Notes: a model not told the origin generated them from the letters alone. Shown: positions 9,825 through 52,603, numbered from the stretch's first letter. The stretch is DNA of 64,000 bases from a candidate division WOR-3 bacterium (GCA_965649295.1 CBFGKH010000009.1:44284-108283); one strand, 5' to 3'. A program made the numbers and translations.

Positions 9825-10859
9825 ATGCGAGTTGTGGTTTCCGCTGCCGAACCATCGGCCGAAGTACTGGCCGCTGAACTATCTCGTGAGATTGGCGTGT
9901 TCGACAGGGACTGCGAGGTCCTGCGTCTTCAAAGTTGGGTGTCCACCGCACCGGTTTTGGGGTTTGTGCACGGTGTAGCACTCGCGGCAAGTCTAAGTCA
10001 AGCCATAGGACGGGCAGTGCAAGTTGTCGATGCGCTCAAACCGGGGATTGTTGTGCTGATTTCCTATTCAAGCTGGCACCTTCCGTTTGGTCTCGCTTTG
10101 CGTCGGCGTGGTTATAGGGTTGTAGTACTGGCACCTCCGCAATTCTGGGCCTGGGCAGGTTGGCGGGTTCGGCTGCTTGCCCGGGCAGCCGATGTAGTTG
10201 TCTGTCTTTTTGGGTTTGAAGAACAGCTGCTGCGGCGTAGCGGAGTCAACGCGTGTTATTTCGGCTACCCTCTATTTGATAGTATCGTGAGACAGGCGCA
10301 ATGCACGCCAACGCCGAACAATGGGAGACGTTTAGTCCTTCTACCAGGGTCCAGGGCTAATGAGCTGAAATTGCATCATCGATTGTTTGTCGCCACTGCA
10401 CGGATGCTCAAAGATTGGTTTCCTGACTGTTCGTGGAGATTCCTCAGTCCAACCGATGCGATGCGCTACGCCGAGATGGCCCAGGCGACTGCTGCGATCG
10501 CGGCATCAGGCACAGCAACGCTGGAGCTGGCAATTATCGGAGTACCGATGGTGGTCTGCTACCGCCTTCCGTTGGCGGAACTGGTTCTTGCCCGGCTCTT
10601 GGTGCGTACGAGGTATTTCGCACTGCCGAACATTATCGCCCGAACAAGAATTGTGCCCGAGCTACTGAATCCAAAAGTGGATGAAATAGCTGCTGCTGTG
10701 GCTACCATCTTGCAGAGCGAGGAGCGGCGTCAGGAGATGAGGGCCGCGCTAAAGGGTTTGGTCGATGTCATTGGTCCAACTGGCGCAATGTCCAAAATCG
10801 CCCGACTCATTCTTGATCTCGGTAGTAGTCATTCGCATCGAGTGATTCGGTCGGCTTGA
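9825..10859 (+). CDS. lpxB: Lipid-A-disaccharide synthase (divergent)
   Basis: PPQFWAW, LLPGSR..E, ASGTATLE, VPMVVCY, FALPNIIA..IVPELL. Confidence 0.82.
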   Translation: MRVVVSAAEPSAEVLAAELSREIGVFDRDCEVLRLQSWVSTAPVLGFVHGVALAASLSQAIGRAVQVVDALKPGIVVLISYSSWHLPFGLALRRRGYRVVVLAPPQFWAWAGWRVRLLARAADVVVCLFGFEEQLLRRSGVNACYFGYPLFDSIVRQAQCTPTPNNGRRLVLLPGSRANELKLHHRLFVATARMLKDWFPDCSWRFLSPTDAMRYAEMAQATAAIAASGTATLELAIIGVPMVVCYRLPLAELVLARLLVRTRYFALPNIIARTRIVPELLNPKVDEIAAAVATILQSEERRQEMRAALKGLVDVIGPTGAMSKIARLILDLGSSHSHRVIRSA

Positions 10860-10893
10860 CTTCGATACGGCTTTCAATATCCTAAGCGCACCT

Positions 10894-12015
10894 ATGGCAC
10901 ACGCATATACTCCCGGCTTGAAAGTCACTGCCCGGACTTTGGTTCGTAAGCAGCGTCGTCTTCCGTTGCCGGGTGAGACTCTTGTGGTTCAGGGTGAACA
11001 GGTGACGGGTGACACGATTGTTGCACGGACGGAATTGCCGGGTAACGTTCAGACAGTGAACGTCGGCGGTTTGCTGGGTGTTCCACCGGAAGATGTTCCG
11101 AGTCTGATGACCAAGCGGGTCGGCGACACTGTCAAGAAAGACGAAGTCATTGCTCTTTCGAAGGGTTTTCTCGGTCTTTTTAAGTCGGAGGTCAGAGCGC
11201 CAGTTGCTGGGACAATTGAGAATGTGTCGCCGGTCACAGGTCAGGTCATTCTGCGGGAGCCGCCGGAGCCAGTTCAAATTGATGCCTATGTCGCAGGCAT
11301 CGTCAGTGAGGTGATTCCCCGTGAAGGGGTGATTATTGAGACTGAGGCGAGCCTCGTTCAGGGCATCTTCGGGGTCGGCGGCGAGGTTCGTGGCGCAATC
11401 AGGTTGATTGCCAAGTCACCTGATGATGTAGTTACTGCCGAGCAAATTGGTGCCGACTGCCAGGGTAAGGTCCTGATTGGTGGGTCACTGATTACTTATG
11501 AGGCGATTGCCGCAGCTCTTGAGGTTGGAGCCAAAGCTATCATCGCTGGTGGCATTGAGGATGGGACTCTGCGGAAATTCCTTGGTTACGACATTGGCGT
11601 GGCAATCACCGGCTCTGAGAAGAAGGGGCTCACATTGGTTGCGACTGAAGGTTTTGGTCGTATGCGAATGGCTGGACGGACGTTCGAACTGTTGCGGTCG
11701 CTCGAGGGAAGAATGGCATCAGTGAATGGTGCTACTCAGATTCGCGCCGGCGTTATTAGGCCGGAAGTTATTGTCCCGGCTGCCGAGAAAGGAATCGAGA
11801 CGAGCAGGAGTCAGATTGAACAGGGGTTGGCCCTCGGCTTGCCAGTGCGCATCATTCGTCAGCCGCACTTCGGTGAAATCGGCCGCGTGATTGATCTGCC
11901 GGTTGAGCTTCAGGAGATTGAGACCGAGGCACGCTGTCGGGTGCTGACGGTTGAACTTGAAACTGGCGAACGCGTGACTCTGCCACGTGCCAACGTTGAG
12001 ATAATCGAAGGCTAG
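10894..12015 (+). CDS. Conserved-looking hypothetical protein with a barrel-sandwich-like segment and C-terminal KOW-like motif
   Basis: 373-aa ORF with own promoter (10856-10883); RAPVAGTIENVS segment, VRIIRQPHFGEIGRV motif. Confidence 0.75.
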   Translation: MAHAYTPGLKVTARTLVRKQRRLPLPGETLVVQGEQVTGDTIVARTELPGNVQTVNVGGLLGVPPEDVPSLMTKRVGDTVKKDEVIALSKGFLGLFKSEVRAPVAGTIENVSPVTGQVILREPPEPVQIDAYVAGIVSEVIPREGVIIETEASLVQGIFGVGGEVRGAIRLIAKSPDDVVTAEQIGADCQGKVLIGGSLITYEAIAAALEVGAKAIIAGGIEDGTLRKFLGYDIGVAITGSEKKGLTLVATEGFGRMRMAGRTFELLRSLEGRMASVNGATQIRAGVIRPEVIVPAAEKGIETSRSQIEQGLALGLPVRIIRQPHFGEIGRVIDLPVELQEIETEARCRVLTVELETGERVTLPRANVEIIEG

Positions 12016-12018
12016 GTC

Positions 12019-12909
12019 TTGCTGCGGTCGTTGCTGCTGCTGCTACTGCCTTTGACTCTAACAAATGGCACAGGAAGGAAAGAAGGGTTCTCGTCGCTCA
12101 AGATACTGCCGGGTGCACGCGAAGCAGGGATGGGGGGGAGTGGTGTCGCCGTCGCTTTCGGCCCGCAGGCTATTGCTCTTAACCCGGCAGCGGTGGCCGA
12201 GTTCAGAACATTTGGCGTTGCTGTCGGTTACACCGATTGGTTGTTGGATACCCGTCTTCAATCGGTATTCGCCGGTCGCAAGTTAAGCTGGCTGGCAGTT
12301 GCGGTTGGTGTAGTGAGCTTTACCGGTGGCCAGTTCGAGTACCGGCTCAAACCGAGTGACGAGCCGTTGGGAACATTTGAGCCAACGGACCTGTCGGTCT
12401 ATACATCGCTTGGTCGGATGCTTGGACGCAAGGTCAGCTTTGGCCTGACCGGTCGTTTTTTTACTGCTCGACTGCTTGAACACAGTGCTAGCGGGTTTGG
12501 TATTGATGTCGGTCTGCGGTTGCGACCTATTGCCGGGGTCGCACTAGGCGCATCGCTCGTTGATTTTGGACGAACCCCCTACTACGAACGTGAGGTTTTC
12601 TGGTTACCGACTCGTGTCCGGCTTGGAGCTGGTTATGATTGGCGTTTAGCTGCGCAGTTGCGTCTAGCGCTGGCGCTCGACGGCAGTTACTATCTCTACC
12701 AGAAAGGATTAGGCGGTCACTTCGGACTCGAGCTCGTTTGGAATGACATGTTAGCAATTCGGGGCGGTTACGAGGCGACTGCTGGTGTTGGTCGTATGAG
12801 CGGCGGTCTCGGACTGCGATCAGGTCTATTCGGCGTTGATTACGCGTTGGCGTCGCTCGCAGCTGGTTTCGGTGTTGTTCAACGTTTTGGAGTTTCATTA
12901 GGGCGTTAG
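12019..12909 (+). CDS. PorV/PorQ-family outer-membrane beta-barrel
   Basis: Signal peptide; LKILPGAREAGMG..A....NPA; amphipathic strands. Confidence 0.75.
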   Translation: MLRSLLLLLLPLTLTNGTGRKEGFSSLKILPGAREAGMGGSGVAVAFGPQAIALNPAAVAEFRTFGVAVGYTDWLLDTRLQSVFAGRKLSWLAVAVGVVSFTGGQFEYRLKPSDEPLGTFEPTDLSVYTSLGRMLGRKVSFGLTGRFFTARLLEHSASGFGIDVGLRLRPIAGVALGASLVDFGRTPYYEREVFWLPTRVRLGAGYDWRLAAQLRLALALDGSYYLYQKGLGGHFGLELVWNDMLAIRGGYEATAGVGRMSGGLGLRSGLFGVDYALASLAAGFGVVQRFGVSLGR

Positions 12910-41515: not shown

Positions 41516-42217
41516 TCAATAGATGTTGGTAGCCGCACCCTTGATAACGACGAAGGCATCAAGGGTTGCAGCAATCGCGAAGTGAAGAATAGCACAAGGT
41601 ACGAAGCTCTTACCGCGAACGGCAAGAATGCCAAGAACAACGCCAGCGACCACGGAACCAGCGGTTTCTGGCAGGGGTTTGCCGAAGTGGAGAATGGTGA
41701 AGGGAATCAATTGGACGGCGAGAGCAGCGGATACGCCAACCCGGCGGGCGAATCCGAACAGTAGGTAGCCACGAGTAATGAACTCCCATGCGAACATCCC
41801 GACTAACCGGACAAGCTGTGCTAGGAGAAAACCCGTAGGCAGCACGCGGGCAAAACTAAAGTAGGGATACACCCGCGAGAACTGCGGCTGCTTGGCTGCC
41901 CAGAGTAGAATCGGCAGCATCAGTATGTAGAGGAGGAGGACGTCAGCTAGCCACTTGCGCCAGGTGCCTACGCGTAAGCCCACAGCACGAGGGGTGAGTC
42001 GCAACAATGGCAGACTAAGCACCGGGATGATCAAGAAAATTGCGCTGCGGATTAACATCCTTATTGCAGGTCGCGCAGCCGGGTCAGTTTTCAACGGTAT
42101 GCGAAAGTAGTGTTCGGTTATGAGAGTAATAGACACGACGGCGGCGATTACCAACAGGTCGGGATACTCGGCAATGGTCTGTCGGATGTCAGCCCAGAAG
42201 CTTCTAAAGTAGTGCAT
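41516..42217 (-). CDS. CPBP (Abi/CAAX) family intramembrane metalloprotease
   Basis: Multi-TM; WEFITRG, F..LHFGKP..E, H motifs. Confidence 0.82.
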   Translation of the reverse strand: MHYFRSFWADIRQTIAEYPDLLVIAAVVSITLITEHYFRIPLKTDPAARPAIRMLIRSAIFLIIPVLSLPLLRLTPRAVGLRVGTWRKWLADVLLLYILMLPILLWAAKQPQFSRVYPYFSFARVLPTGFLLAQLVRLVGMFAWEFITRGYLLFGFARRVGVSAALAVQLIPFTILHFGKPLPETAGSVVAGVVLGILAVRGKSFVPCAILHFAIAATLDAFVVIKGAATNIY

Positions 42218-42337: not shown

Positions 42338-43885
42338 TCAGGCTATTTGGTAGACGCTGTCGAGAACTGTGCCGTCAATCCATTTCACTACGGCCACAAC
42401 TTTGTCGGTGAGTTTCGGTCGGCTCGGTTTGCCGCAGATTCGTTCAACTTCTGCCTTGATGTCTTCGATTGGCCGAATCGGCAGGCCCTTGCCCTTGGTT
42501 GATTCGATGAGATCGGGGCGAAGGGGGTTGATGGCAATGCCTAGTTCAGTGACAACAACGTCAACGAGCTCGCCTGGTGAACACAGGGTTGTGACTTCGT
42601 CAACAATGATTGGCATACGGTCGCGCATCGCCGGTACGGATAGTATTGTGCAGCGGGCGTTCATGCAGTTTTGCCAGCCGCCAATACCGTGACGCAATCG
42701 ACCATCAGAGTGCGTTACGACGTTCGCATTGAAGCTGGTATCAACCTCGGTAGCGCCGAGAACGGCCACATCAAGTAGGTTGATGTAGTTGCCCTTGGCG
42801 TGATAGTTGTAGCTGATGAGTGGTGTCGTTGAGACATGGCCACGGTTGACGGCGATCGAGTGAACCGCGTCGAGATCAAAAGCCTGACCGTCAATCAACG
42901 CAGAGGTCAGGCCCTGTTCGAGCATCTCAACAAGATAGCGAGTTGTGCCGCCGTGAATCCAGCTTGCCTTGACGCCGGCATCGCGCATCATTTCAGCGAG
43001 GAAGATTGCGAAAGCAAGGGAGACGCCGCCGGCTCCGCCCTGGAAACTAAATCCGTCACGCATGATTCCGGCATCGCGGATAAACCTTGCTGTTAGCTCG
43101 GCAATATAGAGCCGATCCGGGCTGCGAGTGATCTGGGTCGTGCCGGAAACAATTCTTTTGGGGTCACCGATTGAATCGGTCTGGACAACATAGTCGATGT
43201 ATGAACCATGGAGTTGTATCGGTATGCAGGGGAAAGGTACAAGATTGTTGGTGACGATGATACTGCGATCGGCGTACATCGTGTCCGGAACGGCGTAGCC
43301 AAGAACGCCACAAGCAGCCTCGCCCTGAATCCCATTTGCGTTGCCAAAACAGTCGGCTGCCGGCGCCGCAAGCACAGCGATATCGATGTGGACTTCGCCA
43401 TCCTGAATCGCTTGTGCCCGGCCGCCGTGGGAGCGAAGTACACCAAGGCCGCGCATCCTGCCTTGTGTGCAGTAGTCACCGAGCGGGCCGTTGAGACTGC
43501 CTTCAACGTGATGTATGACACCGGAATCAAGGTGTTTCGTGATCGGTGCGTGGCACGGGAACGCGGCCGACGGGTACCAGACGAGGTCTCTTAGGCCCAT
43601 CTCAGCGCAGATGTCGAAAAGCTGCAACGCGAGAGTGTCGCCGTCTCGAAAGTGATGATGGGTCGAAATGGTCATTCCGTCCCGAATTCCACACTTCTCC
43701 AACGCCGTGCGCAGGTCAGGTAGGACTTTGTTGCCGTCTTCTGGATAGTCAATGCAGGTCGGAATTGGTGGGCAGGCCTTGCGACCGGCTGGGCGGTACT
43801 TGCCTACTCCGGCGAAGGGAACTGCCGGCTTACCATTGACTTCAGTGGGTACAGGCCGCCCCAAAGCGTTCCTGACGATAGTCAT
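42338..43885 (-). CDS. citF: Citrate lyase alpha subunit-like acyl/CoA transferase
   Basis: GMTIS.HHHFR.GD, RSHGGR, FSFQ.G.GG, A.EVD..FN.NV, GIGG, DGTVLD.VYQ; real start ATG 43885 overlaps the upstream stop (ATGA). Confidence 0.9.
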   Translation of the reverse strand: MTIVRNALGRPVPTEVNGKPAVPFAGVGKYRPAGRKACPPIPTCIDYPEDGNKVLPDLRTALEKCGIRDGMTISTHHHFRDGDTLALQLFDICAEMGLRDLVWYPSAAFPCHAPITKHLDSGVIHHVEGSLNGPLGDYCTQGRMRGLGVLRSHGGRAQAIQDGEVHIDIAVLAAPAADCFGNANGIQGEAACGVLGYAVPDTMYADRSIIVTNNLVPFPCIPIQLHGSYIDYVVQTDSIGDPKRIVSGTTQITRSPDRLYIAELTARFIRDAGIMRDGFSFQGGAGGVSLAFAIFLAEMMRDAGVKASWIHGGTTRYLVEMLEQGLTSALIDGQAFDLDAVHSIAVNRGHVSTTPLISYNYHAKGNYINLLDVAVLGATEVDTSFNANVVTHSDGRLRHGIGGWQNCMNARCTILSVPAMRDRMPIIVDEVTTLCSPGELVDVVVTELGIAINPLRPDLIESTKGKGLPIRPIEDIKAEVERICGKPSRPKLTDKVVAVVKWIDGTVLDSVYQIA

Positions 43886-45102
43886 TGCGTCTCCTTGAGC
43901 CAGTCTGCGTCCAGGCAACCGCAGCTGATTGCTAGTTCGATTGTGCGTATCGCCCGTCTGACTACCGGTGTATCGATCATTTTCGAACCGACACTTACAG
44001 CCCCGAGGCCGCGCGTTTGAGCTTTGTTGTAGGCGCGTACAATTTCCTGGGCCTTTTCGATCTCGAATCGAGTAGGGGTGAACGCTCTGTGGACCACGGC
44101 AATCTGACGCGGGTGTATGCAACCTTTGCCTTCAAAACCCATCTCTTTGGCAGTGATACAGCTGAGTTCAAGCGTCTTCATGTCATCAACGTCGGCAAAG
44201 ACAGTGTCAATAGCCTGAACTCCCGCGGCTCTGGCAGCATTGACAATTTGTGATCTGGCCCAGAGGCTTTCCAGCCCGGCTGCAGTTTTTGTTCCTCCGA
44301 GATCAGCAATGTAGTCCTCGAGTCCGTAAGTCAATGCGCAGATGCGCTTGGAAGCGCTGGCTATTTCACGGGCACGAAACATTCCCTCGCAACTCTCGAT
44401 AATCGGCATTAAGAAGACATCTGAGTGTGACCGGCGTGCTACCGTTTGAGCGGTTGCGACGTGTTCATCGACAGCGATAACCTGTTCCGGGGTCTCGCAC
44501 TTAGGAATGAGGATGACATTGGCACCAGCCTGGACAATCGTGTCGATTTCATCGAGTCCGCGCGGCAGCTGATTGATTCTCACCATCCGTTCGCATGAAC
44601 CGAAATCAACTGCCCGCAGTGCGTTACGGACAAGAACCAGGGCTGCGTCTTTCTCAGCTGGCGGTACCGAGTCCTCGAGGTCGAGAATAATAGCGTCAGG
44701 CTGGTGGATGCGGGCATTGAGCATGAATTTGGGCTCATTGCCCGGCAGATACAGTCTTGTGCGGCGCCAGCGCTCCTTGTTTGTCGGCCTGCCCATTGTC
44801 GGCCCGGGCTCAGGTAGGTACTCGGGAACCTTACACCCAGGAAATGCTCGCCGGACGGCCGTTTCAAGTCGAGCCATAATGACAAATGGCAAAGCACCGG
44901 TGTCCTCAGCCGCAACACGACAGTGGTTGACACCTAGCGCGCTCAGTTCGGTCATGATAAGCTCGCGATTGGGCTGGCCGTACATGAAGTCAACTTTGCT
45001 CTTCAGTTCCAGTTCGATGCCGCCGCTGTCACGGGGTTCGACCTCGATCCAGATATCGCTGCGTACGTCCGGTCCGCGTCGGCCCGCCGATGCTATAGCC
45101 AT
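43882..45102 (-). CDS. Fused citrate lyase ACP (CitD)-like and citryl-CoA lyase (CitE)-like protein
   Basis: N-terminal AG..SD...ELKSKV...YG...D.GAL...I.AR.ETAV.R; then RRTRLYLPGN, DLEDSV, RIN, PK, IIES, G.ED, GK.CIHP.Q, MID.PV. Confidence 0.88.
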   Translation of the reverse strand: MAIASAGRRGPDVRSDIWIEVEPRDSGGIELELKSKVDFMYGQPNRELIMTELSALGVNHCRVAAEDTGALPFVIMARLETAVRRAFPGCKVPEYLPEPGPTMGRPTNKERWRRTRLYLPGNEPKFMLNARIHQPDAIILDLEDSVPPAEKDAALVLVRNALRAVDFGSCERMVRINQLPRGLDEIDTIVQAGANVILIPKCETPEQVIAVDEHVATAQTVARRSHSDVFLMPIIESCEGMFRAREIASASKRICALTYGLEDYIADLGGTKTAAGLESLWARSQIVNAARAAGVQAIDTVFADVDDMKTLELSCITAKEMGFEGKGCIHPRQIAVVHRAFTPTRFEIEKAQEIVRAYNKAQTRGLGAVSVGSKMIDTPVVRRAIRTIELAISCGCLDADWLKETQ

Positions 45103-45594
45103 CTATGCGCCCTTCCGCGTCCTGAGTTTGGCGCGAGTGAATTCGAGCAGGCCGCCTGCACGAGTGATTGCCAATATCTCTTCGGGTAGCCTGGGAAAAG
45201 AGTAGATGTCATTGCCGATCTTGATGGTGCCAGCGGCGGCATCAAGCTGAACAGGCAGGCCTGGATGATAAGCCTCGACTGCTGCCGGGGCTTCGACCAG
45301 CAGCAAGCCTTGATTAATGGCAGCCCGGTAAAAGATGCGGGCGAAACTCTTCGCAACAATCGCTTGGATGCCCACTGCCTTCAGCCCAACAACCGGTTGT
45401 TCGCGTGAGGAACCACAACCGAAGTTTCTGCCGGCGATGATGATATCACCAGCCTGAACTTCTTTAGCAAATGTCGGATCAAGGTCTTCGAGAAGGCGCG
45501 GCTTGATTTCCTCGGGCTTGGCACAGGTGTAGGTGTATTTGCCCGGAAACAGCATGTCGGTGTTGATATCGTCACCGTAATGCCAGACTTTCAT
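45103..45594 (-). CDS. LeuD/HacB-family dehydratase small subunit
   Basis: GDDINTD..FPG.Y, NFGCGSSRE, SFARIFYR.AIN.G, GGL. Confidence 0.92.
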   Translation of the reverse strand: MKVWHYGDDINTDMLFPGKYTYTCAKPEEIKPRLLEDLDPTFAKEVQAGDIIIAGRNFGCGSSREQPVVGLKAVGIQAIVAKSFARIFYRAAINQGLLLVEAPAAVEAYHPGLPVQLDAAAGTIKIGNDIYSFPRLPEEILAITRAGGLLEFTRAKLRTRKGA

Positions 45595-45595
45595 C

Positions 45596-46858
45596 TTAGG
45601 CCACCTTTCGCGGGTCAGTCAGTTTACCGGTGATGGCAGTCGCCGCGACCGTGGCTGGGCTTGCAAGGTAAACCTCCGCGTCCTTGCAACCCATGCGGCC
45701 CTTGAAGTTGCGGTTCGACGTCGAAAGGCAACGCTCGCCAGGCGCGAGGACACCTTGGTGGGCCCCCAGACAAGGACCGCAGCCCGGCGGCAGCAGGACT
45801 GCACCGGCAGCAACCAGCGTCTGTATGTCACCAGCGTCGAGAGCTTTGTTTAGTTCGCTACGTGAGGCCGGCAGAATTAACAGACGAGTATTGGGAGAAA
45901 CTTGTTTGCCTTGGAGAATGCGAGCAGCAACCGCGATGTCACTCGCGCGGCCATTGGTACACGTACCAATGAGGCACTGGTGAATCTCAAGACCTTCAAG
46001 GTCGGTAACCGGTCGGTAGTTGTCAACCTTATGAGGCGCTGCTACCGCTGGAACAATTCTGTTCAGTTCGAATTCGAGCTCCTGGCGGTAGCTCGCTCCC
46101 GGATCGGCCCATTCTGCGTTCCAGGAGATCCGGGTGATGCCGCTTCCGGCGAGATAGCCCTTAGTGACTTCGTCAACAGGAAAGACCGCATTCTTCGCGC
46201 CCATCTCCACGCCCATGTTGGCAATTACGAACCGGTCGTCCATCGTCAAGTTTCCGATTTCGCCCCAGTACTCGACTGAACAATAATCAGCGCCGTCAGC
46301 GCCGAGTTGGCCGATGATCGTCAAAACAAGGTCCTTGGCCGAGACCATTTCTGGTAGTCGGCCCCTAAGCGTTATGCGAATTGTCTCGGGTACCTTGAAC
46401 CATGTCTCGCCAGTCAACAGTAGAGCCGCAGCTTCGGTTCGGTCAATCCCCGTCGCAAAGGCATTCACCGCACCGTATGAGCAGGTGTGTGAATCAGAAC
46501 CAACCGCAAGCATACCGGGTAAAACCAGACCTTTTTCGACCATAACCTGGTGACAGACACCGGTACCGATATCGAAGAAGTTCTTGATTCCGTATTGCTT
46601 GACGAATTCACGAATTCGCTGATGACTCATAGCTGTCTTTTCGTCGGACGCAGGAACGACGTGATCGAGGACGATGACCGGCTGATTAGGATCAGCGACT
46701 CCAAACTCAGTGAGGTCATTAGCAATCTTGCCAACGATAGCGGCAGCATTGTCATGCATCAGCAACCGATCCGGCTTACATGTTACAAGCTCACCGGCGT
46801 GTGTTTCCTTTCTGCCGGCCTTACGCGCCAGCACCTTTTCGGCAAATGTCATTGGCAT
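45596..46858 (-). CDS. LeuC/HacA-family dehydratase large subunit
   Basis: HD, DH, GVCHQV, GSDSHT, GTCTNGR, CGPC.G, STSNRNF.GRMG. Confidence 0.93.
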   Translation of the reverse strand: MPMTFAEKVLARKAGRKETHAGELVTCKPDRLLMHDNAAAIVGKIANDLTEFGVADPNQPVIVLDHVVPASDEKTAMSHQRIREFVKQYGIKNFFDIGTGVCHQVMVEKGLVLPGMLAVGSDSHTCSYGAVNAFATGIDRTEAAALLLTGETWFKVPETIRITLRGRLPEMVSAKDLVLTIIGQLGADGADYCSVEYWGEIGNLTMDDRFVIANMGVEMGAKNAVFPVDEVTKGYLAGSGITRISWNAEWADPGASYRQELEFELNRIVPAVAAPHKVDNYRPVTDLEGLEIHQCLIGTCTNGRASDIAVAARILQGKQVSPNTRLLILPASRSELNKALDAGDIQTLVAAGAVLLPPGCGPCLGAHQGVLAPGERCLSTSNRNFKGRMGCKDAEVYLASPATVAATAITGKLTDPRKVA

Positions 46859-46902
46859 CGGGTTCCTCTTTTCTTGAACTACTGGTCAGCCCGGATGAGC
46901 AG

Positions 46903-46930
46903 ATTATAGGGCCTAGCCAGCGACTGGCAA
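46903..46930 (-). promoter_or_regulatory. Internal promoter TTGCCA-N16-TATAAT driving the leuC-leuD-citDE-citF-like genes
   Basis: Perfect -10 in the 108-nt gap; GAGGA SD downstream. Confidence 0.6.
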
Positions 46931-46966
46931 GGCCTGGAGGGTTGCCCCGGGGTTGTGTATTCTTGT

Positions 46967-48766
46967 TCAGCCGAGTAGGCCTCCACGCCGATAGATGTCA
47001 AGCTGAGCCTTAGCGAACGGCCGTCCCTGAACTCGCTGCCCCGTACGTTTGATGACAATCTCACCGGTTTCAAGATTCGCACTGACCTCGTCGCCATTCC
47101 TTACGCCCGCATTCACCAGGTCAGCTATCATCACTGGCAGGGCGACATTGACCGCATTGCGAAAGTAGATGGCGCCGTACGACTTCGCGATAATTAAGCT
47201 GATACCGAGGCTGAGGAGGCAGTCCACTGCCTGCTGGCGCGATGACCCGGCACCGAAGTTTGCGCCAGTGACGATAATGTCGCCCGGCCTAGCCTTTTTG
47301 GCGAAGTCCTCCCAGCCCGGCAGGTTGTCGAATGTGTACTTACCCATTTCTCTGCGGTCAGTGATGGCTAAATAGCGGTTGTGAAATATCATATCGGTGT
47401 CGATATTGTCACGATCGATTACCCAGACCCGGCCAGTGATAACGGTTGGGCGAGGACCGGACGCCGGTCGGCCTGATTCTGATGCCCTGGTTGAGCCGGC
47501 GTCAACAGTGAAAACCGCTGGTGTGGCCGGTATGGTATCGGCAGTCGTGATGATGCCGGCAACAGCCGACGCGGCCGCGGTAGCGGGTGAACAAAGCCAG
47601 ACTTCGCCCTTGCCCTGCTTGCCAGTGAAATTGCGATTGCCAGTTGAGACAGTAATTTCCCCAGGCCCGTTCTGGCCAATTTGACCGGCAGCGCATCCAG
47701 CGCAGCCGGCGTTGCCGATGAGTGCACCGGCCTTCTTGAATACTTCGAGTAGGCCGTTATGCATGCACCTCTGCCAAATAGCATCAGTCGCAGGTACGAC
47801 TTTTAGGACGACACCGGGCGCGACCTGGCGTCCGGTGAGAATCTGGGCGGCGGCCATGAGGTCAGAGAGACGTCCATTAGTACATGAGCCGATGAAGGCT
47901 GAGTCAATCTTGCGGCCGGCGACAGTGCCGACCTCGACCACATCTTCAGGATGACCTGGACGAGAAATGAGTGGCTTGAGACCGGCTAGGTCAAGCCGTT
48001 CGACCCGGGCATACTTTGCATCACCATCAGCATTGACAGGCATTGCCTTGCGGCCGGTTCGTTCCGTGCAGTAGTCAATGATTTCATCGTTGGGAGGAAA
48101 GAGAATGATTATCGCTCCCATTTCGGTGCCGAGCGAGGAGATTGTTATGCGGCCGTCAAGGTTGAGACGGTCAGCATAGTTGCCGTAGACCTCAGCAGCA
48201 TAGCCGAGCAGACCGTCGGCGCCGAAGTGCCGGAGCAAAGCAAGTCCGACATCCTTCGGGGTGATTGCGGGGTTGGGCTCACCGATAAGTTCGATTCGGA
48301 TCGTCGGTGGAACCTCGAACCAGACTTTGCCGTAGGCCCAAGCGTGAGCAATATCCTGATCGCCCATGCCTTGACCAAAGGCGCCAATGGCGCCGAGGAT
48401 GTTAGCGTGTGAGTCGGTTGAGACCAGTGTTTCGCCTGGACCAACTAGGCCTTCATCAATTGCTAAGTGCGTGCCAATGCCGGCGTTAATATCATAAATG
48501 CGGATTCCATGCCTGCGGGCGAATAGGCGACAGAGTTGCTGATTAGCCGCATACTTCTGGTCTGATCCGGTAGGATTGCAATCAAAGGTGAAGAATGTCC
48601 TTTTCGGGTCAGCAATGCCCAGATTGTGTTCTTCAAGCGCCTGGACGACATTGGCACCCCCAAAATCGCGTGCCACGCGTGCATCAATTTCCAGCTCGAC
48701 GATGTCACCGGGCGCAACCGACTTACCACAATGGGCGGCGATAATCTTTTCGACAATCGTGGCCAT
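46967..48766 (-). CDS. Fused large+small aconitase-family (LeuC-LeuD type) dehydratase
   Basis: DSH, GSCTNGR, GCAGC, STGNRNF.GKQG, linker, then DNIDTD, NFGAGSSR, GGLL swivel domain. Confidence 0.9.
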   Translation of the reverse strand: MATIVEKIIAAHCGKSVAPGDIVELEIDARVARDFGGANVVQALEEHNLGIADPKRTFFTFDCNPTGSDQKYAANQQLCRLFARRHGIRIYDINAGIGTHLAIDEGLVGPGETLVSTDSHANILGAIGAFGQGMGDQDIAHAWAYGKVWFEVPPTIRIELIGEPNPAITPKDVGLALLRHFGADGLLGYAAEVYGNYADRLNLDGRITISSLGTEMGAIIILFPPNDEIIDYCTERTGRKAMPVNADGDAKYARVERLDLAGLKPLISRPGHPEDVVEVGTVAGRKIDSAFIGSCTNGRLSDLMAAAQILTGRQVAPGVVLKVVPATDAIWQRCMHNGLLEVFKKAGALIGNAGCAGCAAGQIGQNGPGEITVSTGNRNFTGKQGKGEVWLCSPATAAASAVAGIITTADTIPATPAVFTVDAGSTRASESGRPASGPRPTVITGRVWVIDRDNIDTDMIFHNRYLAITDRREMGKYTFDNLPGWEDFAKKARPGDIIVTGANFGAGSSRQQAVDCLLSLGISLIIAKSYGAIYFRNAVNVALPVMIADLVNAGVRNGDEVSANLETGEIVIKRTGQRVQGRPFAKAQLDIYRRGGLLG

Positions 48767-48768
48767 GG

Positions 48769-49344
48769 CTACTGTAGTAGTTGACCCTTGTCGAGCATGA
48801 CTAACGGATCGAATGTTGCGAAGTCGGCCTGGTGAATAAGCACTGTTTCCACGACCTTGGGCGCGCCTTCACCCTCTTTAGCATGGCAGGCGATGGTGTT
48901 GACGATATCATCAGGCAGACCTACCTGAGCAGCCAGAATCGCTCCGGAAATGGGGTGTCGTGCATACATCCCGCGAGAGCTCTTGCGATAGCCGCCTTTA
49001 CCGTCCTTTTCCGTTTCAATAAGTTTCCCCACGTCATGGAGCAGGCCGCCGGCAATGAGCCGGTCCATGTTGATCTTGTACGGCATTTGCCTGTAGGCAT
49101 TCTCCTGCGCGTCAGCTAGAGCACAGGCTCCTTCGGTCACAGCAATGGTATGTTCTATCAGGCTGATGCCGTAGGTCTTGGTGAGCAAGGTGAAGGGAAG
49201 CTTGTGCAGTTCCTCAATTGAAGTCCAGTTACCCTGTCGGCAGCCCTCAAGCCAGGTTTGAACCACCTTCTGGCGAATTTCCTTGTCCCCAATCTCGTTC
49301 AACTGATCCAGGAAGACTTCCTCGATTTGACTAGCGGTGATCAT
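48769..49344 (-). CDS. HD-domain metal-dependent phosphohydrolase
   Basis: EH...LLHDVGK...H...CH...HQAD. Confidence 0.88.
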   Translation of the reverse strand: MITASQIEEVFLDQLNEIGDKEIRQKVVQTWLEGCRQGNWTSIEELHKLPFTLLTKTYGISLIEHTIAVTEGACALADAQENAYRQMPYKINMDRLIAGGLLHDVGKLIETEKDGKGGYRKSSRGMYARHPISGAILAAQVGLPDDIVNTIACHAKEGEGAPKVVETVLIHQADFATFDPLVMLDKGQLLQ

Positions 49345-49353
49345 CTCTCTTCC

Positions 49354-50535
49354 TCAAAGTGCAGCAATTATAGCGTCTGTCATCTGTTGAGTCGTGGCCG
49401 CACCGCGAGCAGTTACATCTGGGCCACCGGGCAGACGTAGCATATCGTAAGTACGCACTTTGCCTTCCTTGATGACGCGTGCAACTGCCCGTCGTATGCG
49501 TTGCGCTCTATCGGTCTCACCGATGTGGTCAAGCATCATGCAGGCAGCAAGAATCATGGCAATCGGATTGACAATTGATGGCGACAGCTTCTCATACTTC
49601 GGAGCTGAACCGTGAGTTGGTTCGAACACGGCGACATCGCGTCCGATATTGGCAGAGCAGGCAAAGCCGAGTCCCCCGACGAGACCGGCAAAGCCGTCAG
49701 ATACTATGTCACCGAACATGTTGCCGGCGACGATAACACCGTAGCTCTCCGGATTCTTTGTCAACCACATCATCACCGCATCGATGTTATCAGAACGGAG
49801 AGCGATGCCGGGATAGTCCCTGGCGACTTTCTTGGCTTCAGCTTCCATCATTCCTGAAGTTTCGCGGATGACGTTGGGCTTTTCGCAGACGGTCACCGAA
49901 CTGTAGCCGAACTGGCGAGCGTATTCGAACGCGGCCCGACAGATGCGTTCGCAGGCCTGCCGGGTGAAGATGCGCAGCGATATTGCCATGTCGGCCGATG
50001 GCACGTGCTTGAAGGCCTGCATCTTCTTGTGGGTTTCCAGTGCGCGTCTTACTTCATCGGGCGGATTGGTCCACTCGACACCGACGTATAGACACTCGGT
50101 GTTCTGGCGGAAGATTACGGCGTCAACCTTAGGTTCCTCAAAGCCTCCGTCGTGGCGACGGATGAAGTTGAGGGGATTACCTTCGAATGAGCGGCAGGGG
50201 CGGATACAGATGTCGAGGTCGAAATGCTGGCGCATCGTGACGATGGGCGAGAAGTATTGCAATCCTTTGCCCTGGAGCGACGGATCGAGTTCGGCCTGAG
50301 CCTTGTCCTTGGGCTTTGACGTAATGGCGCCAAAGAGACCAAGTCGGTGGGTCTCGAGCAACTTGACAGTTCGTTCTGGAAAAGCGTTGCCCTCCTTGCA
50401 CCAGAACTCCCAGCCGATATCGCCGTGGACATAATCCGCCGCGAAACCAGCGGCCTCAAGCACGCGAATTGCCTCAGGGAGGACGATCTTGCCGATACCG
50501 TCACCAGGCATGGCTACGATTGTTCGCTTGGCCAC
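49354..50535 (-). CDS. Isocitrate/homoisocitrate/isopropylmalate dehydrogenase family protein
   Basis: PGDGIG, SPIVTMR, RQNTE.LY, NMFGDIVSD, FEPTHGSAPKY, NP.A. Confidence 0.93.
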   Translation of the reverse strand: MAKRTIVAMPGDGIGKIVLPEAIRVLEAAGFAADYVHGDIGWEFWCKEGNAFPERTVKLLETHRLGLFGAITSKPKDKAQAELDPSLQGKGLQYFSPIVTMRQHFDLDICIRPCRSFEGNPLNFIRRHDGGFEEPKVDAVIFRQNTECLYVGVEWTNPPDEVRRALETHKKMQAFKHVPSADMAISLRIFTRQACERICRAAFEYARQFGYSSVTVCEKPNVIRETSGMMEAEAKKVARDYPGIALRSDNIDAVMMWLTKNPESYGVIVAGNMFGDIVSDGFAGLVGGLGFACSANIGRDVAVFEPTHGSAPKYEKLSPSIVNPIAMILAACMMLDHIGETDRAQRIRRAVARVIKEGKVRTYDMLRLPGGPDVTARGAATTQQMTDAIIAAL

Positions 50536-50584: not shown

Positions 50585-50612
50585 ATTCTAGCCGAGACAC
50601 TTGAGAGGTCAA
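50585..50612 (-). promoter_or_regulatory. Promoter TTGACC-N16-TAGAAT of the dehydrogenase/aconitase/lyase cluster
   Basis: Hexamers read directly; GGAGG SD before GTG. Confidence 0.65.
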
Positions 50613-50629: not shown

Positions 50630-51688
50630 TTAGCCGGAAACGAGATAGGCCAGGATGAGCCGAATGGTGGCGTCGAGTGACCGACGATGAGTGCGCTCGA
50701 GATTGTGAGAGGCATTGATGCCGGGGCCGATGAGTCCAGTTACAACGTCGGCGCCGGCGCGGACAGCAGCAGCAGCGTCGGAGCCATAGTGGGGATAGAC
50801 ATCAACCCTGTATGGTATGGCAAATTGCTGACAAAGGTCAACAAGGTGCTGGCGCAGACGATAGTCGAATGGGCCGGTTGAGTCCTTGGCGCAGATTGCA
50901 ACCGAGAACTCATCTGACTCTTGTCCCTTGCCGACTGCGCCCATGTCAATGGCGAGGAGCTGGTAGGTACCAGTTGGGATACCAGACGACGCACCTGACC
51001 CGACTTCTTCGGATGTGCTGAAAAGGAAGTGACTGGCGTGGCGCGGTTGCAGCCGATTATCTCGCAAGCACTTGATGGCCGTGACCATGCAGGCAACTCC
51101 GGCCTTGTCATCGAGGTGGCGTGATTTCACAAAGCCGGTGTCAGTCAATTCAAAGCGTGGATCGAAATGGATGTAGTCGCCGGTAGCGATGCCTAGTTGC
51201 TGTAGCTCTTCCTTGGTACTGGCCTCGGCGTCAACGCGGACAACCAGGTTCTCGATCTCACGCGCTGCGTTGACCACGTCCTTGCTGACATGGGCTGACG
51301 GTTTTTCGTAAAGCACGGTGCCACGATAAGACTTTCCGGCTGAGGTTTCGATTGTGCAGTATTCGCCCTCGATCGAACCTGGCGCATAGCCGCCGACTGG
51401 TGTCAGTCGAACCTGACCATCTTTGTCCAGCTCTTTAACCATTGCAGCAAGTGTATCGACGTGAGCAGTCAGGGTGCGATGGGGCCCGGCATCGCGGCCA
51501 GGCATCGAGGCGACGAGAGCACCGCGACTCGTACGGACGTGGCTGATGCCCAACTGGTCAAGTTCGGCCTCCAGTAAGCGGATTGCCGCTTCAGTGTGAC
51601 CGGCCGGGCTGGGAGTGCGGCAGAGTCTCTCGAGTAACTCAACCGTATAGTTGGTGATATCACTGGGAACAGTGAGAGCTGTATCCAA
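50630..51688 (-). CDS. M42 family metallopeptidase
   Basis: PSPAG, AHVDT, SRHLDDKAG, EEVG, DMG, GSDA, SH..ER. Confidence 0.9.
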   Translation of the reverse strand: MDTALTVPSDITNYTVELLERLCRTPSPAGHTEAAIRLLEAELDQLGISHVRTSRGALVASMPGRDAGPHRTLTAHVDTLAAMVKELDKDGQVRLTPVGGYAPGSIEGEYCTIETSAGKSYRGTVLYEKPSAHVSKDVVNAAREIENLVVRVDAEASTKEELQQLGIATGDYIHFDPRFELTDTGFVKSRHLDDKAGVACMVTAIKCLRDNRLQPRHASHFLFSTSEEVGSGASSGIPTGTYQLLAIDMGAVGKGQESDEFSVAICAKDSTGPFDYRLRQHLVDLCQQFAIPYRVDVYPHYGSDAAAAVRAGADVVTGLIGPGINASHNLERTHRRSLDATIRLILAYLVSG

Positions 51689-51697
51689 GTGGAATCC

Positions 51698-52603
51698 CTA
51701 CCAATCTACCAGCGCCGGTACCCAGGAGTTGCCGGCGTCGGTCGTAAAGAGAAGCGTTCTTTCGTCACCGCCAATGATGCCGCGAACCCCGTCGGCAAAG
51801 AAACGGATACTGTAGAGGTCAAAACTGACGCCGGTGTTGAACCGTTCCCAGGTTCTGCCACCGTCACTGGTGTGAACCAGCGTACCCTTAGCACCGCAGG
51901 CGAAACCTTCCATCGTGTCATGGCGAAAGTCAAGCGAGTAGAGCGGCGGCAGAATGAAGTCCATTGGCAGTGGTCGCCACACCTCACCGCCAGAGTCGGT
52001 GAATATCACATGGCCGGAGCTGGTGACGGCAAAGCCCACCACGTCATCAGCCGGGAAGTGAACAGCTAGGATGTTGACGTCTGGTAGCAGACCATTGAGG
52101 TTGTCGGTCTGCGAGAACCAGACAGTGCCACCGGTCGTCGTCTTGAGCAAGGTGCCATTCAGACCGACCGCATAGCCGGTCAACTCGTCGGTCGGGAAGC
52201 ACATGTCCATTATCTTCTGGTCAGTGGCGACAGCAAGCCGCTGCCAAGTCTGTCCGCCGTCGGCGGTGCGAAGAATTACTCCGTTGTCACCAGCACAGAA
52301 TCCGACCTGAGGCGAGACCGGGAATCGAATCGAACGTAGATGTTCAGAAACTCCGGAATTGAGCAGTTTCCAATTTGCGCCGGTGTCCTCGGTTCGCATT
52401 ATCGTACCGTTGTCACCGCAAATGTAGCCGATCGCCCCCTGGCCGGGATAGTTCATCGAATAGAGATTGACCGTTGTCGGGACCGGCCGGCGTTGCCAGG
52501 TGGCGCCACCGTTGGTGGTGCTTAGGCGGAGACCAGCGTCACCGACTGCAGCCGCGAGCAAGGTGTCGTCAAGGGTAAAGACTGAGTTGATGCGGTTCGC
52601 CAT
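51698..52603 (-). CDS. Ycf48-like (BNR repeat) beta-propeller protein
   Basis: Repeated G..G.I..T.DGG.TW blades. Confidence 0.85.
   Translation of the reverse strand: MANRINSVFTLDDTLLAAAVGDAGLRLSTTNGGATWQRRPVPTTVNLYSMNYPGQGAIGYICGDNGTIMRTEDTGANWKLLNSGVSEHLRSIRFPVSPQVGFCAGDNGVILRTADGGQTWQRLAVATDQKIMDMCFPTDELTGYAVGLNGTLLKTTTGGTVWFSQTDNLNGLLPDVNILAVHFPADDVVGFAVTSSGHVIFTDSGGEVWRPLPMDFILPPLYSLDFRHDTMEGFACGAKGTLVHTSDGGRTWERFNTGVSFDLYSIRFFADGVRGIIGGDERTLLFTTDAGNSWVPALVDW

Follow-up and report, generated by a model that had tools for sequence, protein, structure and literature searches.

What is the function of a cluster in which a beta-decarboxylating dehydrogenase, an HD-fold protein, two aconitase-family hydratases and a citrate-lyase-like pair are encoded side by side? 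The question is raised by positions 42338..50535 of a 64,000-nucleotide stretch of DNA (hereafter, the window) from a candidate division WOR-3 bacterium (GCA_965649295.1, CBFGKH010000009.1:44284-108283). On the strength of sequence features and genome context, it is probable that this module finishes the anaerobic catabolism of lysine: 2-oxoadipate would be carboxylated with CO2 and NADPH to homoisocitrate, isomerized to homocitrate and cleaved to acetate and 2-oxoglutarate. The seven genes are the following:

49354..50535, minus strand: beta-decarboxylating dehydrogenase, 393 aa (PF00180, Iso_dh), predicted NADP-type homoisocitrate dehydrogenase / 2-oxoadipate reductive carboxylase
48769..49344, minus strand: small HD-fold protein, 191 aa (PF01966)
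46967..48766, minus strand: fused aconitase-family Fe-S hydratase, 599 aa (PF00330+PF00694, large and small parts fused), predicted to catalyse the homocitrate <-> homoaconitate step
45596..46858, minus strand: homoaconitase-like large subunit (LeuC-type), 420 aa, predicted to catalyse the homoaconitate <-> homoisocitrate step
45103..45594, minus strand: small subunit (LeuD-type) of the homoaconitase-like hydratase, 163 aa (PF00694)
43882..45102, minus strand: fusion of an acyl carrier protein (ACP, CitD) with CitE, 406 aa (PF06857+PF03328), predicted homocitryl-CoA lyase
42338..43885, minus strand: CitF-like CoA-transferase, 515 aa (PF04223), predicted acetyl-CoA:homocitrate transferase

These seven open reading frames (ORFs) are separated by 9, 2, 108, 1, 0 and -4 bases. 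A preliminary description of this DNA had reported seven co-oriented, mostly tightly spaced genes, with CitE/CitF-like proteins and no isopropylmalate or homocitrate synthase among them; this is borne out by the ORFs, the gaps and the Pfam/NCBIfam domains, while the fusion of CitD to CitE had gone unmentioned. The start of CitF is the ATG at 43885 (515 aa), the ORF tool giving instead a TTG at 44122. None of the seven proteins scores above an equivalog cut-off in the Pfam/NCBIfam profile search.

The best NCBIfam model for the dehydrogenase is AksF2, a homoisocitrate dehydrogenase (HICDH), with 275 bits against a cut-off of 540; AksF (257, cut-off 500), LEU3_arch (252, cut-off 410) and leuB (155, cut-off 353) follow. 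Aligned with the isocitrate dehydrogenase (IDH) of E. coli, its loop SPIVTMR falls on SLNVALR, so that Ile98 occupies the position of Asn115, and K313-Y314 of HGSAPKY fall on K344-Y345. All 12 IDHs listed in Table 2 of a published comparison have Asn115, and K344/Y345 mark NADP use there (PMC3521221). In the window's protein the pair of Asn115 and Ser113, which binds the gamma-carboxylate in IDHs, is absent as such, Ile98 replacing the Asn while the Ser stays; the NADP-discriminating Lys-Tyr is present and the Asp of the NAD-type HGSAPD is absent. Ile is found at the Asn115 position in every one of the 99 relatives (of 100) displayed in the alignment, in 78/78 distant relatives and in the Thermus HICDH, and alignment with the Thermus and S. 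pombe enzymes reveals the feature of homoisocitrate dehydrogenases (Lys12/Hdh/AksF), namely this Ile together with an FGAxxSP-type loop. The use of NADP, already proposed from the sequence, is supported by the Lys-Tyr signature, kept with HGSAPKY in 100/100 relatives. Both motifs that the preliminary description gave for the dehydrogenase are thus confirmed; the fungal SPIVALR with which it compared them appeared in none of the alignments, and the Thermus HICDH has Ile at this position. In the Protein Data Bank (PDB), residues 40-108 matched only HICDH chains, and these weakly. It speaks for an IDH instead that the top PDB match of the whole protein, by sequence and by fold, is an IDH (6lky). 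As the best PDB match is an IDH while the best family model is the AksF2 HICDH, the fold does not decide the substrate, and in the fold search IDH, HICDH and isopropylmalate dehydrogenase came out alike (Z 41-44).

Concerning the hydratases, the fused protein retains the three Fe-S cluster Cys of the canonical aconitase-family site, whereas the three His positions of LeuC/HacA are altered (HD to RD, DH to DC and CHQ to GTH, compared with the large subunits of M. jannaschii). In a quick tree built from 18 random type-A relatives, 29 type-B relatives, the two window proteins and E. coli LeuC, it forms a clade of its own. The LeuC-type subunit passes the subfamily cut-offs of hacA_fam and IPMI_arch, but not LEU2, HacA_Meth or TIGR00139; with the homoaconitase models it reaches 298 (TIGR00139, cut-off 530) and 437 (HacA, cut-off 550), and hacA_fam, which it passes, is a mixed subfamily. 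In the same tree it lies on a long branch within a supported 21-row clade that includes three proteins passing the fungal-type homoaconitase model and no characterised homoaconitase. Four loci have, next to the dehydrogenase, a hydratase that passes this fungal-type model (687-870, cut-off 530). The LeuD-type subunit scores 166 with LEUD_arch (cut-off 109), and its loop FPGKYTY recurs in all 10 relatives inspected for this motif. In fungi and Thermus, the conversion of homocitrate to homoisocitrate takes two enzymes (PMC3556520), which matches the two hydratases of the module; sequence and genome context thus support the earlier suggestion that dehydration and rehydration are split between them. 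Among 180 dehydrogenase loci, the fused hydratase (53 loci) and a PrpD-like gene (7 loci, two of them short) never occur at the same locus, the PrpD-like proteins scoring 74-89, far below the PrpD cut-off of 575.

The CitD, CitE and CitF domains are all present, each below its own citrate-lyase cut-off: the fusion reaches 51 with citD (cut-off 63.5) and 278 with citE (cut-off 443), and CitF misses its model by little (497, cut-off 501). Identity to the E. coli proteins is 37% for the CitE part and 40% for CitF. The position of E. coli CitD Ser14, the attachment site of the prosthetic group, is Arg in the window's protein and 23 of 24 relatives, and Lys in one; a Ser stands one residue along in 23/24 fusions and leaves modification possible. 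Citrate lyase has CitC, CitX and CitG as companion genes (PMC10798043). In the window's genome (G000), these were sought through PF01874 and by tblastn with the E. coli proteins and those of an Aerophobetes locus, L206 (E <= 1e-3), and no match was obtained. The latter locus provides a natural control, as it carries beside the same module a free CitD with GTLESSD as well as citC, citX and citG. Other CitE-like enzymes act on free CoA esters (PMC3832036) and, given the lack of the ACP serine and of CitC/X/G, the CitDE fusion probably does the same.

The geometry of the reaction can be considered as well. The CitE profile model is named a pro-3S lyase and relatives of CitE cleave (S)-thioesters (PMC3832036) which, given the same priority order, points to (S)-homocitryl-CoA as the substrate. 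By this analogy, the module probably works through (S)-homocitrate, the enantiomer of the (R)-homocitrate on which fungal lysine biosynthesis relies (PMC6268379). With a product of the citrate-synthase type, PrpD carries out a syn elimination of water at the arm that stems from the acyl-CoA (PMC5690661). Formation of (S)-homocitrate from cis-homoaconitate would need this PrpD geometry, which would explain both the rebuilt site of the fused hydratase and its exchange with PrpD-like proteins.

The predicted pathway would begin with the saccharopine pair, an aldehyde dehydrogenase and an aminotransferase, which would give 2-oxoadipate from lysine. The dehydrogenase would join 2-oxoadipate, CO2 and NADPH into homoisocitrate, the LeuC/D-type pair would convert this into cis-homoaconitate, and the fused hydratase would turn the latter into homocitrate. 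CitF would then transfer CoA from acetyl-CoA to homocitrate, and CitE, probably with free CoA, would release 2-oxoglutarate and regenerate acetyl-CoA. The 2-oxoglutarate may feed the saccharopine step again, GdhA, or a ferredoxin oxidoreductase followed by SucCD.

The cluster is more than a chance assembly, since the seven-gene order is repeated in three further genomes of the same family (L099-L101; 3 of the 20 regions fetched) and its parts recur in other phyla. The latter is seen in the best 80 dehydrogenase loci (63-77% identity, many on short contigs), which derive from Bacteroidota, Cloacimonadota, Krumholzibacteriota, Ignavibacteria, Planctomycetota and others, and in which the HD gene (62 loci), the fused aconitase (36), CitF (22) and CitDE (21) are found near the dehydrogenase. 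Of 12 genomes of the window's own family, 8 have the dehydrogenase, and these same 8 have CitDE. Among 141 evenly sampled Bacteroidales genomes, 58 with the dehydrogenase (module genomes) and 83 others, the two are together in 57, apart in 5 and both absent in 79; the hydratase type is present in 57/58 module genomes, and at least two hydratase matches occur in 52/58 of them vs 7/83 others. The seven genes are a co-inherited module, a functional unit even where they lie scattered. Conservation as a unit, on which the first interpretation of the cluster depended, extends across phyla and within the Bacteroidales. A more distant type of the dehydrogenase (51-60% identity) extends to Aminicenantes, Atribacterota and Thermoplasmata; among 111 genomes of the window's phylum, 16 have the close type, 29 the distant type and 66 are without the dehydrogenase family. 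Thermoplasmata archaea commonly encode members of this dehydrogenase family that have the NADP signature (L137-L210), and in many cases the gene follows a small hydratase subunit that stands alone. A plasmid search returned only distant relatives (<40%).

The link to lysine emerges from co-occurrence. The saccharopine-type lysine:2-oxoglutarate reductase (LKR) is encoded in 58/58 module genomes vs 26/83 others of the Bacteroidales sample, and four of these 26 carry CitDE and may be incomplete. In the window's phylum it is present in 15/16 close-type genomes vs 11/66 of those without the dehydrogenase family. The lysine 5,6-aminomutase of classical lysine fermentation has the opposite distribution (1/58 module genomes vs 19/83 others), while the P6C dehydrogenase is found in 25/58 vs 12/83. 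At four Cloacimonadota loci, saccharopine genes lie directly upstream of citDE, both of them in L022, L023 and L045 and the reductase in L030. L061 has a P6C dehydrogenase (801, cut-off 730), LKR and SDH after the module, L204 an L-lysine 6-transaminase (637, cut-off 521) after it, and L119, one of 20 regions reached from the LKR side, the run LKR-SDH-fused hydratase.

The genome from which the window derives is 2.28 Mb long and 100% complete. It encodes a saccharopine-type LKR and SDH pair (C5:20495-23167), behind dapA-dapB, together with several 2-oxoacid:ferredoxin oxidoreductases, SucCD, GdhA and an NfnAB-like pair, so named from its gene pattern and a GltD match. The dehydrogenase is its sole PF00180 gene, and it has no further aconitase-family gene. 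Citrate synthase, LeuA, SucA, PrpC, PrpD, IlvC, IlvD, IlvA, GltB and lysine 5,6-aminomutase were not found in it, nor was an HMGL-type synthase, the single match being a biotin carboxylase/decarboxylase subunit. The hydratases do score as an archaeal isopropylmalate-isomerase-type subfamily, as would be expected if plain LeuB/LeuCD of a leucine or citramalate route stood beside a canonical citrate lyase. This reading is, in our opinion, extremely improbable in view of the missing LeuA, IlvC, IlvD, IlvA and CitC/X/G, of the low leuB score (155 vs 353), and of a PF00180 scan of 15 module genomes, 7 of which have a LeuB (416-437 bits) as a gene of its own. The preliminary description had named it among the outcomes that would overturn its proposal, and the complete genome does not bear it out. 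Leucine synthesis in this genome was ruled out on the leuB score and the missing LeuA and IlvCD.

Could the module serve citrate itself? Read as IDH, aconitase and citrate lyase, it would form a citrate/2-oxoglutarate shunt, as a segment of the reductive tricarboxylic acid (TCA) cycle or a citrate fermentation, alone or besides C7 acids. Such a role has been published for Ignavibacterium album, whose IALB_1146/IALB_1147 pair (CitF, CitE::CitD) was read as an ATP-independent citrate lyase, possibly of the reverse TCA cycle (Liu et al., 2012; PMC3362086). The fusion is of the same type, orthology being judged from the description; the main text of that paper has neither the word homoaconitase nor isocitrate dehydrogenase, and no assay. 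It also agrees with a shunt that Ser113 is kept, that the module provides the only IDH- and aconitase-family genes of the window's genome, and that in L009/L014 the neighbours of the module include ATP-citrate-lyase (ACL)-like genes and those of a 2-oxoacid:ferredoxin oxidoreductase. On the other hand, Asn115 is replaced, and citrate synthase is equally common with and without the module (37/58 vs 46/83). Among the 37 genomes having both, 13 have a monomeric IDH, and 10/10 further ones tested (14 were left out) have a second PF00180 gene (282-319 bits), which in three lies beside citrate synthase. One aconitase would suffice for a shunt, yet 52/58 module genomes have at least two matches; moreover, the 58/58 link with LKR would be left unexplained, and CitC/X/G were not found in the window's genome. 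We regard a shunt as quite unlikely, and a plain TCA role of the module as unlikely; a dual activity including citrate may exist.

If the chemistry is that of C7 acids, as sequence and context support, the remaining question is its direction. Of the three options considered at the outset, a 2-oxoadipate-forming route, its catabolic reverse and a citrate shunt, the catabolic one is favoured. Gene content and co-occurrence make this direction likely, because the lyase slot comes without a synthase (no LeuA-, GltA- or PrpC-like gene in the 180 dehydrogenase loci), NADPH suits a reductive carboxylation, and no aminoadipate-reducing enzyme was found. Alternatively, CitE/CitF could replace homocitrate synthase, the module making 2-oxoadipate and the saccharopine pair completing lysine. 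The distribution of lysA would fit biosynthesis, the gene being depleted in module genomes (20/58 vs 47/83) and in LKR genomes in general (26/84 vs 41/57 of the others); no clear lysA was seen in G003 and G004, and a tight run dapA-dapB-LKR-SDH exists in the window's genome (L082:6829-11183) and in G079 (L125:4913-9295). This run, absent from the other 19 of the 20 regions fetched around LKR, could reflect co-regulation, or a saccharopine pair acting on a dipicolinate-derived substrate. Against biosynthesis, lysA is kept in 20/58 module genomes, and a classical lysine-fermentation enzyme occurs in 14 of the 36 genomes that lack both module and lysA, so that loss of lysA also marks lysine eaters. 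Of the marks of aminoadipate-based lysine synthesis, homocitrate synthase was not found in the window's genome, LysX and a thioester-type reductase were below cut-off in the five genomes tested for each, this one included in the case of LysX, and AOR had no match in it; no LysW search was made. In addition, synthases are driven by hydrolysis of a thioester, a step that is missing from a transferase/lyase pair. For a CitE-like enzyme, condensation was noted only at a high excess of the acceptor (PMC3832036). Taken together, we consider biosynthesis unlikely.

Several observations weigh against lysine catabolism as the function of the module. A lysine-catabolic gene adjoins only 6 of the 180 dehydrogenase loci, plus L119, adjacency being thus the exception; LKR is found in only 15/29 genomes with the distant-type dehydrogenase in the window's phylum; and 33/58 module genomes are without a P6C dehydrogenase, as is the window's own genome at the model's cut-off (best aldehyde dehydrogenase 385 of 730). 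Module and aminomutase coexist in G002 and G148, and a KamA-like gene adjoins the module in L204. To these must be added the rarity of lysA in module genomes and the dapA-dapB-LKR-SDH run, as well as the diaminopimelate route of the window's genome, which looks incomplete (no DapF match; dapL-like 467, cut-off 507; lysA-like 272, cut-off 298). Finally, the Fisher values for co-occurrence ignore kinship and, as kin are not independent, overstate the association. Alternatively, the substrate of the module could be a different tricarboxylate, such as one with a methyl branch, or 2-oxoadipate not derived from lysine, the lysine link then reflecting a shared lifestyle. In favour of this, PrpD-like and PrpB-like genes occur in some variants, the HD protein is unaccounted for, no equivalog model is passed, and the link with LKR is weaker in the distant type. 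This is improbable considering the three different lysine-catabolic neighbours in separate lineages, the orthologues that pass the homoaconitase model and the near exclusion with the aminomutase.

The lyase slot of the module is variable, and may contain CitDE/CitF, an ACL-like pair or a gene of the isocitrate lyase (ICL)/phosphoenolpyruvate (PEP)-mutase family. ATP-citrate-lyase-like genes stand in place of CitDE/CitF in L009:7500-19004, L014:7479-18980 and L133:2183-9119; a 2-oxoacid:ferredoxin oxidoreductase precedes the module in L009 and L014, and annotation would take loci of this kind for reverse TCA clusters. In L093, which is without the HD gene, the ICL/PEP-mutase-family gene (10542-11432) lies between dehydrogenase and hydratase and is a candidate CoA-free lyase. 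The Aerophobetes locus (L206:45-10511) has the order citC-citD-citE-citF-citX-citG, then HD, both hydratase subunits, dehydrogenase and the PrpD-like gene; the gene after it (11367-12200) presumably resembles the C-terminal part of pyrrolysyl-tRNA synthetase. In the Atribacteria locus L204 (1550-3271), which is without a known lyase, genes of 452 aa and 109 aa lie upstream of HD; they have no NCBIfam match, look like AtuA-type and DUF4387 proteins, and are possibly a fourth lyase type. At five Bacteroidales loci (L036:4885-5295, L058, L064, L074 and L077), a glyoxalase-family gene, likely a methylmalonyl-CoA epimerase, is directly upstream of citDE.

The HD gene, near the dehydrogenase in those 62 of the best 80 loci, accompanies both first-step hydratases and every lyase type except that of L093. 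Those relatives of the HD protein that carry a name are from WOR-3, which makes this phylum the likely host. The H...HD...D metal motif is intact in the window's protein, while the dyad His is Ala/Cys/Ile in many relatives; H65, D104, K107, E110, R129, H130, H154, E157, E166, H171 and D174 are invariant in 37 rows. The structural model is of high quality (predicted local distance difference test, 96) and its best and only fold match is YhaM (9h3f, E 2.8e-4); the PDB gave no sequence match and the Atlas only generic HD clusters. A PrpF-like isomerase was rejected, since HD is also present in PrpD-type loci; that the protein is a lactonase or a cofactor-repair enzyme is a guess.

As for the surroundings of the cluster, an M42 peptidase and a YCF48-like gene lie upstream on the same strand (50630-52603), and a CAAX protease downstream (41516-42217); neither side is conserved with the module, and the M42 peptidase and the CAAX protease were rejected as members because 0/80 loci carry them. 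Two weak promoter-like sites were noted, although the scan, with 9 sites vs 6.1 +/- 2.3 in shuffles, does not rise above chance for either:

50585..50612, minus strand: promoter-like site (weak) upstream of the dehydrogenase, 10/12 consensus bases
46903..46930, minus strand: promoter-like site (weak) in the 108-base gap before the second hydratase, 11/12 consensus bases

The module resembles several known systems. It shares with the upper alpha-aminoadipate pathway of fungi and Thermus the use of two aconitase-family enzymes between homocitrate and homoisocitrate (PMC3556520), an HICDH-like substrate loop and orthologues passing the fungal homoaconitase model. It differs in having a CoA-transferase/lyase rather than homocitrate synthase, in its NADP signature, NAD being the cofactor of the fungal enzyme (PMC6268379), in that no LysX or aminoadipate reductase was found, and in its predicted opposite direction through (S)-homocitrate. 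Citrate (pro-3S)-lyase (CitDEF with CitC/X/G, EC 4.1.3.6) is similar in its CitF and CitE sequences and its ACP-like domain, but the module version has CitD fused to CitE, Arg at the Ser14 position, no CitC/X/G found and scores below the cut-offs, and is inherited with a dehydrogenase and two hydratases. With the reductive TCA segment (IDH, aconitase, ATP-citrate lyase) it has in common the reductive carboxylation of a 2-oxoacid, isomerisation and retro-Claisen cleavage, as well as the ACL-like variants; here, however, each predicted substrate has one carbon more, and it is at the hydrated arm that cleavage has to take place. The 2-methylcitrate cycle (PrpD, AcnD/PrpF) offers the PrpD geometry predicted here (PMC5690661) and the PrpD-like genes that replace the fused hydratase, whose scores are nevertheless far from PrpD; there is no PrpC in the loci or in the window's genome. 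Plants, animals and bacteria convert lysine to aminoadipate by the saccharopine pathway (LKR/SDH/AASADH; PMC7253579). Every module genome among the sampled Bacteroidales has its LKR, as stated above. The known continuation of this pathway is oxidative, via glutaryl-CoA; no SucA match exists in the window's genome.

The enzymes thus belong to known families, and the predicted logic is that of the reductive TCA cycle and of citrate lyase one carbon longer; no description of a homocitrate lyase, homocitryl-CoA, homocitrate cleavage or 2-oxoadipate carboxylation was found in the literature searched, most subscription journals lying outside the search. More broadly, we tentatively propose that a widespread, undescribed type of lysine fermentation that fixes CO2 exists in Bacteroidota, Cloacimonadota, WOR-3, Ignavibacteria and others, and has relatives in Thermoplasmata. 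It would comprise an NADPH-driven 2-oxoadipate carboxylase, a new (S)-homocitrate-making aconitase subfamily and the first homocitrate lyase, working on free CoA with a vestigial ACP; it would replace the aminomutase pathway and supply 2-oxoglutarate to cells without citrate synthase. The window's phylum includes many peptide fermenters of sediments and digesters, and among the carriers of the module are the cultured genera Labilibaculum (L060/L063) and Carboxylicivirga (L061). If the prediction is true, genes that in metagenome bins now pass for citrate lyase, IDH or LeuB/C/D, or for signs of a reverse TCA cycle, would have to be reread; three enzymes would be added, namely an NADP-HICDH working as a carboxylase, a homocitrate lyase and a hydratase whose stereochemistry is opposite; and anaerobic lysine breakdown would gain a further route, in 58/141 of the sampled Bacteroidales and 45/111 genomes of the window's phylum.

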